Source of the DNA: Candidatus Poribacteria bacterium
GTDB taxonomy: Bacteria > Poribacteria > WGA-4E > WGA-3G
DNA: 64,000 nucleotides
Direction: 5' to 3'
Assembly: GCA_965198235.1 (NCBI GenBank)
Contig: OZ240248.1
Span: 1,760,001 to 1,824,000, forward strand
Shown: positions 36,753-40,375 of the stretch, piece after piece
How positions within the stretch are numbered: the stretch's first letter is position 1
Layout of the letters: each line of letters begins with the position of its first letter
Notes under the pieces: generated by a model
What the model saw: only the letters and a program-made list of their open reading frames with translations
The model's database searches: none
What the model was told of the DNA's origin: nothing
Position numbers and translations under genes: made by a program

Positions 36753-38147
36753 TTGCATCCAGTGCCCGTAGGGATGGTTTTGCGCGATGCGATGCGTTTG
36801 GCGCAAGCGGTTAACCCAGAGGAAACACTGGACGAACAAATTCTTCAGGAGGCATCCAAATCGCAACCGGTCCCAGAAGAGTTACAACCAAAACTTGGAG
36901 AAGTCGGACAGGACTCAGGTTTAAAGCAGGACCAGAAAAATGTTGAAATCTGCACCCAAAATTTGGTTGCGATTGGCAAAGCAATCCAAGCCTACCAGAA
37001 GGAACACAACGATTTTCCAGAGTGGCTGTCGGAACTCCATCCGAAATACTTGCCAGATGCGAATAGCTTACTTTGTCCAGCAGATGAAGACGGTGGCAAG
37101 ACTTATTTTCTTATCAATAGGGATCCAAAAATGTCCATGAGTTACGACTACCAATTTCACCCTCAGTATCGAGCAACAAAAACTGAGGAACGCCTCATGT
37201 ATGGGGATGTTTTACCGCTTGTCCGTTGCCGACATCATAAGAATCGAGCGTTTGAATGTCTAAACTTGAATTTCGCTTTTAAGGTATTTTGGTCATCTGG
37301 TGTGTACACACCGGATCAGTTGTATGAAACCGTTGAGGGAGCCATTGAAGCATTGGAAAAAGGGCTTCAGCGACAAGCAGATAATGAACGGTTCTTTCAT
37401 GTCTATCGTACACTCGCGCATCTCTATATTGAAGTCGGACGCGAAAAAGATGCCGAGCACCTCATTAATCGTTTCAAATCGGTTATAAAACCTGATGACC
37501 TTCAGGCACATTTTATTCTCAGCAGGATGCTTGAAATGGCGAATCAGCATGAAGAAGTGCTTAAAGTTTTTGAGAATCTTGAGGAGTGGTATCCGGAGAA
37601 CTACCGCGTTCTTGAAGAACTTGCGAGGATTCATGAGGAACTGGGTAATTCCGATCTCGCCGCGGAATATCGGAGAAAGGCGGATCCAATGTCGGAGCTT
37701 GTAGGAAAAGTTGTGCATGGCTTTTCTGCGACAGACCTTGATGGTAAACCGATTTCGCTTCAGGACTATCGTGGGAAAGTTGTCTTGCTTGACTTTTGGG
37801 GAGTGTGGTGTGGTTTCTGCATTGACGAAATGCCGAATCTCAAAAAAGTCTACGCTACCTATAAGGATCAGGGATTTGACATCATCGGTGTTAGTCTTGA
37901 TGATGAGGAATCGGAACTGCGGGACTACATTAAGGAGAACGACATCCGGTGGCGGCAGATTTACAGCGGTGAAAGGTGGGAGGACGATCCACTCGCACAG
38001 CAGTATGAAATTATGGGTGTTCCGGAACAGTGGCTTATTGACAGAGGTGGCAAATTAATCACGCATAAAGCCAGAGGGTTGAAGTTGGAACAACTCGTAG
38101 TGGAAGCACTCAAGGACAAATCTGCAGATCAATCAATAATAGATTAA
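36753..38147 (+). CDS. TPR plus TlpA redoxin protein, probably the truncated remainder of an M56/BlaR1 fusion
   Basis: CTQNLVAIGKAIQAY (DUF1559-like), TPR helices, WGVWCGFC redoxin. An out-of-frame M56-like remnant lies at 36580-36726. Confidence 0.75.
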   Translation: MHPVPVGMVLRDAMRLAQAVNPEETLDEQILQEASKSQPVPEELQPKLGEVGQDSGLKQDQKNVEICTQNLVAIGKAIQAYQKEHNDFPEWLSELHPKYLPDANSLLCPADEDGGKTYFLINRDPKMSMSYDYQFHPQYRATKTEERLMYGDVLPLVRCRHHKNRAFECLNLNFAFKVFWSSGVYTPDQLYETVEGAIEALEKGLQRQADNERFFHVYRTLAHLYIEVGREKDAEHLINRFKSVIKPDDLQAHFILSRMLEMANQHEEVLKVFENLEEWYPENYRVLEELARIHEELGNSDLAAEYRRKADPMSELVGKVVHGFSATDLDGKPISLQDYRGKVVLLDFWGVWCGFCIDEMPNLKKVYATYKDQGFDIIGVSLDDEESELRDYIKENDIRWRQIYSGERWEDDPLAQQYEIMGVPEQWLIDRGGKLITHKARGLKLEQLVVEALKDKSADQSIID

Positions 38148-38260: not shown

Positions 38261-38332
38261 CACTCCAGAGGAGTGCTATGTCTATAGAAATCCAATGCCC
38301 AAATTCTTGCACTCCAGAGGAGTGCTATGTCT
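38261..38332. repeat. Direct repeat pair
   Basis: CACTCCAGAGGAGTGCTATGTCT occurs twice, 49 bp apart; each copy is a small hairpin. Confidence 0.8.
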
Positions 38333-38488
38333 GGTAGATTTCATCGTAGGTTGGGTTGAACGGATAATGCCGAACGCTCGCAGTCTAAAAACTGCTGGCA
38401 CTTTTCCCACACATCTTCTTCATAGAGATAATGAGTGAAACCCAACGCTTTTCTAAATCGTCCCAACAATAGGAGGCAAAATAAGATA

Positions 38489-40177
38489 GTGGTAGACTTT
38501 AGCAACACTCTTAGTAGGACAGCAAGTGTGCAGATAGAAGCACATTGGGATCCAATCGAGAATACAGCGAATAACTTACATCGGTCAACAGAAGAAAAGT
38601 TTAATCGAGCCAAGGCACAGTGGCGAGAGCCGGTGGATATGACGTGGGAACAGTGGTTGGAGGTGTTCAATCCCGGACCTGCACATCCGCTGAAGAATTA
38701 CAGCACGGCAGATTTTCAAATCTTTCTTCCACCGTCAACCGTCAATGTCGGGGGTGTCTGGGACTTGGACCCAGAGGGAATTCTCCCTTTTCTACGCCAG
38801 TTTCACCCAAGTGCAACAATGAAAATCCCACGTTATGGCTCCATTCCATCCGATCAGAAAGATGCAAAGGCGTGCTTACGGGCACTTTCGTCTGAATATG
38901 CTGACATCGTTTTCCGAATTCATCCGCGCTTTACACTGGACGCGTCCATTGATGCCTACTTTATGCCAGCGCAATTTGCCGGACATCTGGTAATCAATCG
39001 CGACAACGGAACGGTTTGTCAATGGACGCTATCGCTTCCGAGACGCAATAGTAATGTAGATATCGGTGCTTTTAGAACTCACGATTTGGGGTTCGTTCCT
39101 CGCATGGAGCTCTACAGTTTATCGGAGACGCAGCCAGAATCGATTGCTTGGGAGGTAGCTATCACTGAGGAAGAAGTCGATAAGAAGTTTCAGAAAGCAC
39201 TCTACAAGTTCGCTGAAATTGAATGGACCCCTATTGAAGATGCGGTCGAACTCGCAAAAGCATTGAATCGCCCGATTCATGCGGTACTTTTATTCGGTGT
39301 ACTCGACGATGAATCCTGCTGAGGGACAGGCAAAAGTTTGAGAGCGGGTCCGCTCTCCTCACCGAAAATTATCAATTTGCTCAACACGCACTTTGTGAAC
39401 GTCTGGGTTCTGCTGAGAGAGTTGCCCGAACTGCAGGCGGGTACCAAAGGGGCAGCAGCTGGTGCCTTGGCAACGAAACTTTGGCAGCATTACTCCGATT
39501 CTGTGGACATCCTAACACTGACCCCCGAATTGGAAGTGATTGAACATCTGCCCAGCAAAAGTTTATTGCATCTCGATTATCTACCTCGTAGTGAGCGAAT
39601 ACCCCGATATTTAGAATTGCTAAAGTCATCCGCGGGTGTGGAAGTTGCGGCACAAAAGCTGAGGAAACTTGAAGAGCAGTCCCCCGAAAAGCACAGTCTA
39701 CCCCGCAGATTTGCCAATATCTATGAAGAATTTGGAAACCCTGTGCCTGATTTTTCTGCGACAGATCTTGATGGAAAACCGATTTCGCTCCAGCAATATC
39801 ATGGGAAAGTCGTCCTACTCGATTTTTGGGCGGTCTGGAGTGGTTTCTGCATCGGAGATATACTGAAGGTCAAGAAGATTTACGATACCTATAAAGATCA
39901 GGGATTTGACATTATCGGGGTTAGCCTCGACACCGATGAAATGAAGCTGCGAAATTACCTTAAGAAAAATAACATCCCTTGGCGACAGATTTTCAGTGGG
40001 CAAGAACGGCAGAGTCCACTTGCACAACAGTATGACGTTCGCTCTATTCCAGCACGGTGGCTTATCGATAGAGATGGCAAGCTGATCGCTCAGGAAGCCC
40101 ATCACAAGTTGATCGCCCGTAAAGGCAGGACGGCAGATTTAGAGCAGCTTGTGGCAGCGGCAATCGAAAACTGGTAG
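38489..40177 (+). CDS. selN: Selenoprotein N-like protein fused to a C-terminal TlpA redoxin
   Basis: Track ORFs 38435-39322 and 39338-40177 share one frame: LLFGVLDDESC-TGA(39320-39322)-GTGKSLRAGPLSSPKIINLLN, matching the SelN motif WGALDDQSCUGSGRTLR. Upstream FMPAQFAGHL, NVD and GFVPRMEL also match SelN. GTG 38489 follows AGGAGG. Confidence 0.9.
39340..39357 (+). promoter_or_regulatory. Putative bacterial SECIS element
   Basis: GAGAGCG-ggtc-CGCTCTC perfect hairpin 17 nt after the TGA. Confidence 0.75.
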
Positions 40178-40375
40178 CCTTCCGTAGGTTGGGTTGAACG
40201 AATCTGTGAGGTCTGATGCGGAGTCTCGTAAGTGCGTCAAGTCCAATACAGCCGCCTATACACTCATCTGACAACTGACAACTGATAACCGATAACCAAT
40301 CAAAAGAGTGGATTTAGCATTCCGAGTTATGCTATCATAAAGAGCACAAATACTCTAACTGAGGTAATAAATAAA

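Follow-up and report, generated by a model that had tools for sequence, protein, structure and literature searches.

A SELENON-like gene of Candidatus Poribacteria, predicted to encode a selenoprotein with a fused TlpA-like redoxin domain

A 64,000-nucleotide (nt) stretch of the genome of a Candidatus Poribacteria bacterium (assembly GCA_965198235.1, contig OZ240248.1, positions 1,760,001 to 1,824,000; hereafter the window) bears, at positions 38489-40177, a gene that is divided into two open reading frames (ORFs) by an in-frame TGA. On the sequence evidence, the gene decodes this UGA as selenocysteine (Sec) and is a genuine selenoprotein gene, and the N-terminal part of about 384 residues is a true homologue of the core of animal selenoprotein N (SELENON, SelN) and a member of a bacterial family. 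It is likely that the locus as a whole encodes one 562-residue selenoprotein with an adjacent cysteine–selenocysteine (Cys-Sec) pair in a SELENON-family core, which would carry out redox chemistry with a proposed electron relay.

The two ORFs, 38435-39322 and 39338-40177, share one frame and are split solely by the TGA at 39320-39322, directly preceded by a TGC (Cys) codon at 39317-39319; thus, the first-pass annotation was right to join them through SC-TGA-G. Read-through gives a product of 580 amino acids (aa) from the earliest possible start and 562 aa from the GTG at 38489, up to the TAG stop at 40175-40177. The GTG is the likely start, given the AGGAGG at 38472-38477 upstream and the match to the starts of orthologues (MIDFSN/MVDFSN). 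With the TGA taken as Sec (U), the product reads ...VLLFGVLDDESC-U-GTGKSLRAGPLSSPKIINLLNTHFVNVWVLLRELPELQ... The features of the locus are as follows.

38489-40177, plus strand: entire predicted selenoprotein gene, 562 codons including one UGA as Sec, then TAG (from the frame and orthologue starts)
38472-38477, plus strand: Shine-Dalgarno-like AGGAGG, 11 nt 5′ of the GTG (read directly from the sequence)
38489-39640, plus strand: SELENON-like core, residues 1-384, with a beta-rich N-terminal part and then a DsbH-type thioredoxin fold (from BLASTP, profile, AlphaFold2 and Foldseek)
39317-39322, plus strand: TGC-TGA, Cys277-Sec278 of the SCUG motif, numbered from the 38489 start (from the sequence and TGA conservation)
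39340-39357, plus strand: hairpin resembling a bacterial Sec insertion sequence (bSECIS), with a 7-bp stem and a GGUC loop, coding for (L)RAGPLS (from sequence and comparison)
39641-39733, plus strand: linker, short here; orthologues have 60-190 more residues with sequence resembling tetratricopeptide repeats (TPR) (from the alignment; model confidence below 50)
39734-40102, plus strand: TlpA/ResA-like redoxin domain, Pfam Redoxin and AhpC-TSA (from Pfam and the ResA structure 4nmu)
39839-39850, plus strand: SGFC where a CxxC active site would stand, first Cys replaced by Ser (AGT) (from the sequence)
36753-38147, plus strand: upstream neighbour, coding for TPR and a TlpA-like redoxin whose WCGFC motif is intact (from the sequence)

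The source genome (5.17 Mb in two contigs, completeness 96.3%, contamination 5.3%) encodes the Sec machinery: selA (592 bits), selB (348 bits), selD (360 bits) and tRNA-Sec (selC, 78 bits, about 170 nt from selB) were all found above curated cut-offs. Relatives of the gene were searched with a four-row alignment, and translation of loci L023-L116 yielded 86 distinct core sequences, in which the Sec codon is TGA in 84, a Cys codon in one and TGG (Trp) in one; since one search pattern required Cys at the Sec codon, this list of loci is skewed to close relatives within Poribacteria. All five SELENON-like copies of the source genome contain exactly one in-frame TGA, and one in-frame TGA is likewise present in all 150 matches of the phylum sample, among the matches listed. 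Other bacterial homologues carry Cys in place of Sec (SCCGTGK, SCCGSGK, ACCATGK). The first-pass annotation had tied its reading both to the Sec machinery and to the codon found in orthologues, and on both points the genomes bear it out. The selD gene of the source genome (locus L012, G000:C1:3115227-3116150) itself carries one in-frame TGA, and its product, the selenophosphate synthetase, is probably also a selenoprotein.

The hairpin that the first-pass annotation had noticed at 39340-39357 is found in the sequence at exactly this place. It reads GAGAGCG-GGTC-CGCTCTC, with stem arms at 39340-39346 and 39351-39357 forming a perfect 7-bp stem and a loop at 39347-39350; the stem begins 17 nt and the loop 24 nt past the UGA. 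To assess it, 79 distinct nucleotide contexts of the TGA were compared, over the interval 12-45 nt from the first TGA base, with 1580 control windows from the same ORFs. Stems of at least 5 bp are present in 79/79 TGA contexts versus 688/1580 controls, stems of at least 6 bp in 75/79 versus 280/1580, and stems of at least 7 bp in 49/79 versus 119/1580, the mean folding energies being -10.1 and -4.2 kcal/mol, respectively. In the 57 contexts with an ...AGP/AGQ... peptide (the class of the window gene plus the ANGK class), the codons of the stem are nearly frozen (Ala GCG 57/57, Gly GGT 57/57, Pro CCG 55/56, Leu CTC 54/55), and the neighbouring four-fold degenerate codons vary, Ser at -2 using four codons and Gly at +3 three. 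Other paralogue classes have a different hairpin at an equal offset, GAGGGC-AGGT-GTCCTC or GAGGAC-AGGT-GTCCTC, and two genes from Planctomycetota possess unrelated hairpins, GACCCTC-CGTGC-GAGGGTC and CTCTC-CGTGT-GAGAG, 6 nt nearer to the UGA. When 20 downstream codons were synonymously re-encoded according to local codon usage, the native fold of -11.5 kcal/mol was equalled in 98 of 5000 cases. Rfam gave no family above chance for the hairpin region. The contrast within the same sequences, together with the exchange of one hairpin for another between classes, argues that the hairpin is a bSECIS-like element under selection at the RNA level.

The homology of residues ~1-384 to animal SELENON extends to either side of the Sec residue. 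BLASTP with the window protein gave an alignment to animal SELENON with an E-value of 8e-33 (31% identity over 240 aa), which passes through the Sec column to residue 324, 28 residues after that column, and a second one of 3e-30 (26% over 330 aa) that spans the Sec fully on both sides. A hidden Markov model from four bacterial sequences scored animal entries named 'Selenoprotein N' at ~100-210 bits. When a bacterial profile was run against 1.84 billion representative sequences, it retrieved a wombat protein of 588 aa (E 1.6e-52) and a jellyfish protein of 522 aa (Sanderia, EukProt; E 2.1e-47); the profile had taken in the sigma-factor region of two rows, and many of its 3466 matches are sigma factors of the extracytoplasmic function (ECF) type, hence this figure does not measure the size of the family. 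UniRef lists the wombat protein as A0A4X2KGP4, 'EF-hand domain-containing protein', and the Atlas cluster closest to it is 'selenoprotein N' (0.98); relatives of both the wombat and the jellyfish proteins bear the name Selenoprotein N in UniRef and NCBI. In the best 120 rows of each of two protein searches with animal queries, all named rows are animal, with a few rows unnamed, and no sponge is among them. The nearest Atlas cluster of a natural Cys homologue, P0028, is also named 'Selenoprotein N'. Thus, the similarity on both sides of the TGA and the likeness of the motif, both claimed from the letters of the window, are substantiated by the animal sequences themselves: conserved blocks include FLRQFHP, FRIHAEF, PAQF.G, VPRMEL and SC-U-G.G(K/R).LR, the Sec column reads ...DDESC-U-GTGK... 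here and ...DDQSC(U)GSGR... in animals, and the motif region is ...ALDDQSC[UG missing in gene model]SGRTLRE...LTLLNEKFISTWSL... in wombat and ...SLDDQSCCGSGRTLRE... in starfish. Sequence searches of Pfam, NCBIfam and the PDB matched nothing of the window protein beyond its C-terminal redoxin domain, and no model of the SELENON core was found in Pfam or NCBIfam.

The EF-hand and the N-terminal membrane anchor are the features that make animal SELENON a calcium sensor of the endoplasmic reticulum (ER), and mutations in SELENON lead to congenital myopathies. The bacterial protein shares with its animal counterparts a core of ~330 residues on both sides of Sec, the SCUG motif with Sec in the same column, a thioredoxin-like fold around this motif as predicted by modelling, and a basic residue four places after Sec, which is Lys here and Arg in animals. 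In contrast, it has no EF-hand by Pfam, which finds one in the jellyfish SELENON, and no N-terminal hydrophobic or transmembrane segment as judged by eye; its Sec would be inserted by a hairpin within the coding region rather than by a Sec insertion sequence (SECIS) in the 3′ untranslated region; a TlpA-like domain is fused at its C-terminus; and the identity is merely 26-31%. The animal Arg corresponds to human R466, a reported site of missense disease mutations (PMC12839072). Animal SELENON is described in the same review as a calcium sensor and redox regulator that acts on the calcium pump SERCA in the ER (PMC12839072), and this calcium-sensing, SERCA-directed role is inapplicable to a bacterium.

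The AlphaFold2 model, computed from 26 alignment rows (mean predicted local distance difference test (pLDDT) 75, predicted template modelling score 0.65), is confident for the core, with pLDDT block means mostly 80-97 over residues 11-360, while pLDDT falls below 50 in the linker. In this model, the Cys-Sec pair lies at the N-terminus of the helix 279-286, following the strand 263-268, and thus is predicted to occupy the CxxC position of the thioredoxin fold. Foldseek against the PDB matched the core to Thioredox_DsbH 7tkv and to DsbH 2ju5 (template modelling score 0.61 by target, root-mean-square deviation 4.4, 147 columns) and the C-terminus to ResA/TlpA structures; a PDB sequence search found no SELENON structure among solved chains. 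DsbH/DUF255 (Thioredox_DsbH) proteins accordingly give the best structural match for the SCUG-bearing part of the core, and one paralogue shows a weak match to the Pfam family (17 bits, below the cut-off). They differ in having no significant sequence match to the window protein, in the CxxC that stands where the window protein has an adjacent Cys-Sec pair, and in lacking its large additional beta-rich N-terminal part.

The C-terminal redoxin domain is well supported by sequence comparison. Residues 434-556 of the 580-aa reading match Pfam Redoxin (E 1.1e-20, 74.4 bits against a cut-off of 26.6) and AhpC-TSA (E 4.8e-20, 72.2 bits against 26), and the domain matches the ResA structure 4nmu at 5e-17. 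Like TlpA, ResA and CcmG, it scores above these Pfam cut-offs and resembles solved ResA structures, but it remains below the cut-off of the NCBIfam ResA model (79 bits against 170), an N-terminal membrane anchor is not seen by eye, and the active-site place reads WAVW-SGFC instead of containing CxxC. The domain is present in 33 of 39 distinct ORFs of the window gene's motif class, the other six being stand-alone cores, and the motifs at the CxxC place in these 33 are NGFC (14), NSFC (12), HSFC (3), SGFC (2), SSFC (1) and CGFC (1). Because the first Cys of CxxC is lost, the fused domain is, as far as its sequence tells, not a standard dithiol reductase. The first-pass annotation had proposed a SelN core with its own redoxin partner; the fused thioredoxin-fold domain stands, confirmed by Pfam, whereas its CxxC has decayed to SGFC. 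The peroxidatic motif of peroxiredoxins (AhpC/TSA) is PxxxT/SxxC, and a peroxiredoxin identity was considered and rejected: S-G-F-C is present, but there is no Pro four places before (LLDFWAVWSGFC), and most orthologues have N or H in place of S/T.

Immediately upstream, the protein encoded at 36753-38147, with its intact CxxC, is a candidate electron donor, and a redoxin-domain match also lies on the same strand, no more than ~4 kb upstream, in 15 more genomes of the genus. In some fusion orthologues (e.g., L034, 751 aa) the linker is long and resembles the N-terminal part of this TPR-TlpA gene; the C-terminal half of the fusion looks like a duplicate of the upstream neighbour, with most of the linker lost in the window copy.

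The mechanism that we propose begins with SelB and Sec-tRNA(Sec), which would read the UGA at 39320-39322 as Sec under the guidance of the hairpin at 39340-39357. The most likely chemistry of the product would be thiol/selenol-disulfide exchange, in which the selenolate attacks an oxidised cysteine (a disulfide or a sulfenic acid) of a substrate protein and the adjacent Cys resolves the adduct to give a Cys-Sec selenenylsulfide. The monothiol TlpA-like domain and the upstream TlpA-like protein might then relay electrons to re-reduce the Cys-Sec centre. The catalytic cycle, the relay and the substrates are inferred, and the protein may function as a Cys-Sec oxidoreductase or as a redox sensor. 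With no signal peptide seen by eye, it is presumably cytoplasmic.

Several points weigh against this reading, some of them concerning the decoding of the UGA and others the chemistry. Selenium in the polypeptide is predicted from sequence, and the sequences compared are kin, so that the counts exaggerate the independent support. The folding energy of a 91-nt stretch containing the hairpin is unremarkable (z -0.05), 87 of 200 shuffled sequences folding equally well. Support from RNA is weak. The contigs of a sponge-metatranscriptome library lie at 38300-39151, 39133-39347 and 39605-39946 in one run, with no cover between 39365 and 39577; the second of them ends 25 nt past the TGA (28 nt from its first base), and none spans the TGA by the required 31 nt to either side. 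DNA may be present in such libraries, and several contigs, with 7-24 letters different from the window, may belong to relatives, hence these data give at most a hint of expression of the gene. If the TGA at 39320 were a true stop, the locus would be a pseudogene or consist of two genes, one for a shortened N-terminal protein and one for a redoxin protein with its own start; or else the TGA might encode a standard amino acid. Public gene calls do split the locus in the same way: many database proteins end in ...DDESC, while others begin with MRAGPLSS under the name 'TlpA family protein disulfide reductase [Candidatus Poribacteria bacterium]'. Moreover, TGA is uncommon as a stop in the window, where it ends two of the 25 open frames of at least 300 codons. 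However, the other TGA-ended frames of the window are followed by further stops, and with TGA serving as an ordinary stop elsewhere in the window a general recoding is unlikely. The codons for GTGKS, from the TGA to the next possible start, are conserved in relatives, in the Cys forms and in animals, and an ordinary stop or standard codon also accords poorly with a single TGA kept in the same column by 84 of 86 relatives and with the Sec machinery encoded in the genome. A true stop, a pseudogene or a standard amino acid is therefore very improbable.

As for the chemistry, the nucleophilic first Cys of the redoxin domain is missing in 32 of 33 orthologues, the second being retained in all 33; AlphaFold2 models this domain poorly (pLDDT about 40-60); and most other paralogues carry an unrelated C-terminal domain in its place, which indicates that the redoxin is not needed for the function of the core. 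An electron-relay role for the domain is speculative, and it could be structural or substrate-binding. Many relatives of the core are exported proteins, as are TlpA-type domains, whereas in the window protein no signal peptide is seen by eye, so the compartment is uncertain. Finally, paralogues fused to ECF sigma factors suggest sensing rather than catalysis as the role of the family. The core might thus be mainly a redox sensor or regulatory domain, in which a change of conformation or of binding to a partner would follow oxidation of the Cys-Sec pair, with the fused monothiol TlpA-like domain as a regulated or trapping partner. The layout of the sigma-fused class, an ECF sigma factor plus a hydrophobic segment, is the usual one for sensor-coupled sigma factors, and the reduction of the redoxin domain to one Cys would fit as well, as would the description of the animal protein as a calcium sensor and redox regulator given above. 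On the other hand, Sec is costly and is typically retained where catalytic rate counts, the Cys-Sec pair is modelled at the catalytic position of the thioredoxin type, and many family members stand alone without any output domain. A chiefly sensory role is a minority possibility that deserves some weight, and a Cys-Sec redox protein with a proposed relay is preferred.

The gene belongs to a large bacterial family. A gene 79% identical to it occurs in the Candidatus Poribacteria single-cell genome WGA-3G, and the core was found (E <=1e-10) in 117 of 151 sampled Poribacteria genomes, including 97 of 99 from the window organism's own family, in which the matches per genome range from 1 to at least 12. 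In Planctomycetota, the core is present in nine of 301 sampled genomes, mostly as a single match, with two partial matches in one genome; TGA stands at the Sec position in 8/8 site-spanning matches, among the matches listed. Other bacterial SELENON-like proteins share with the window protein the core, the position of Sec and a hairpin at the same place. They differ in architecture. An N-terminus resembling a signal peptide (by eye) and an unrelated, conserved C-terminal domain of ~130 residues are found, singly or together, in most of them; one class carries an ECF sigma factor as fusion partner, and others consist of the core alone, at ~390 aa. The redoxin fusion was seen, among the loci examined, only in Poribacteria and in the motif class of the window gene.

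Members of the sigma-fused class combine an ECF sigma-70 factor (Pfam regions 2 and 4), a hydrophobic segment and the Sec core (loci L086, L088, L091, L093 and L095; P0003-P0017), and one of them, L093/P0003, has Cys in place of Sec; judged from its sequence, this class looks like a one-component redox-sensing sigma factor. The ~130-residue C-terminal domain is shared by many members (L113-L116, L045, L105; P0126) and also occurs in a Pirellulaceae genome; it bears the motifs ...YQDYT.VEIDTT.FE.GG...RG.RFKLGATG...NAF.A.ISV... and gives no match in Pfam. Four proteins (P0185, P0221, P0230 and P0240) have the beta-rich part of the core interrupted midway by a long coiled-coil-like insertion of ~170-200 residues and, as called, stop before the Sec region. 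Tandem SELENON-like genes, with two cores per locus, were observed in L087, L097 and L103, and in the database protein P0004 the post-UGA part of one copy continues directly with the pre-UGA part of the following one.

To place the window gene relative to animal SELENON, two maximum-likelihood trees were built in quick IQ-TREE runs (LG+C20; hand-picked rows, unrooted). The first comprised 63 rows (31 locus sequences, 22 metagenome representatives and 10 animals); in the second, of 69 rows, the long branches P0236, P0208 and P0146 were removed and four invertebrates and five Planctomycetota were added. Animals (10, then 14) form one clade in both trees, with a Shimodaira–Hasegawa-like approximate likelihood ratio (SH-aLRT) support of 100 and a branch of about 1.3-1.5 changes/site, and in the second tree the 14 animal sequences stand apart from the 55 bacterial rows. 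The order within the animal clade is roughly as expected (cnidarians, echinoderms plus the mollusc, vertebrates). The window gene falls into a five-row clade of fusion orthologues nested in a 28-row clade of 25 Poribacteria loci and three metagenome rows (support 99), which adjoins Planctomycetota and metagenome rows; a second, distant clade of Poribacteria exists.

The first-pass annotation had seen in the gene a possible sign of exchange between symbiont and animal host, and here the trees speak against it. A recent transfer between the bacterium and its host (a sponge), in either direction, could be suspected from the concentration of the family in Poribacteria (117/151 genomes versus 9/301 in Planctomycetota) and from the RNA-library runs containing this stretch, which are labelled sponge metagenome. 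In agreement with the first-pass view of SELENON as essentially eukaryotic, SelN has been said to appear animal-specific (Lobanov 2007), and the sponge Amphimedon is listed with one SelN (Jiang 2012, Table 1). Nevertheless, the separate animal clade with its long branch and near-expected order, and the position of the window gene within the Poribacteria radiation, argue against recent host–symbiont exchange; the identity of the window protein is 26-31% to animal and 33-37% to other bacterial forms, and the bacterial gene has an in-frame hairpin as opposed to the eukaryotic SECIS described for the sponge gene (Jiang 2012). On the rows sampled, recent exchange is therefore improbable, if somewhat less so than a true stop at the TGA. 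The direction and age of the link between bacteria and animals are not fixed by these trees, which are unrooted and have no rows from sponges or non-animal eukaryotes. Tentatively, SELENON may be no animal invention but belong, as one branch, to an old family of bacterial Cys-Sec proteins with a thioredoxin fold, which Poribacteria would have expanded into one of the largest bacterial selenoprotein families, with 5 to at least 12 Sec-encoding copies per genome in exported, redoxin-fusion and ECF-sigma forms, the last as would-be selenium redox sensors.

A Poribacteria SelN homologue fused to a thioredoxin domain was reportedly mentioned by Castets et al. in 2012, and such a homologue is probably already in print. 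A literature search for SelN together with Poribacteria found no relevant paper (main texts). The terms 'bacteri' and 'prokaryot' are absent, by term search, from the text of a 2026 review on SelN (PMC12839072), and a term search of the main text of a 2026 review of prokaryotic selenoproteomes gave no SelN or SELENON. An Atlas cluster of 283-aa fragments, in which Candidatus Poribacteria is the commonest phylum, is auto-named 'Putative selenoprotein n 1 (Fragment)', which shows that the similarity has already been noticed by database annotation. The Sec-encoding size of the family, the fusions to sigma factors and the conserved in-frame hairpin were not found in print.

A bacterial homologue could be a simple model for animal SELENON, the muscle-disease protein: being soluble and having the same Cys-Sec centre, it could be crystallised and assayed to learn the role of the SCUG centre, and the natural Cys variants would ease its expression. 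If the family is indeed an old bacterial one, these soluble proteins would for the first time make the structure and chemistry of the SELENON core tractable. That bacteria and animals place Sec at the same position and insert it by two incompatible signals makes the family a case for the study of selenoprotein genes crossing domains. Furthermore, with gene calls split at the UGA, hundreds of Poribacteria selenoproteins are mis-annotated as fragments or as 'TlpA family' proteins.

The gene is flanked on both sides by a 16-mer, GTAGGTTGGGTTGAAC, at 38346-38361 and 40184-40199 on the plus strand. Its interpretation as a cassette boundary was rejected, as it is a genome-wide repeat with 118 copies at no more than one mismatch (62 forward and 56 reverse), the reversed control giving 0. 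The copies often form inverted pairs ~210-230 nt apart and have the look of miniature inverted-repeat transposable elements or repetitive extragenic palindromes. Contigs from public runs often break or skip ~66-70 nt at 38363-38433.

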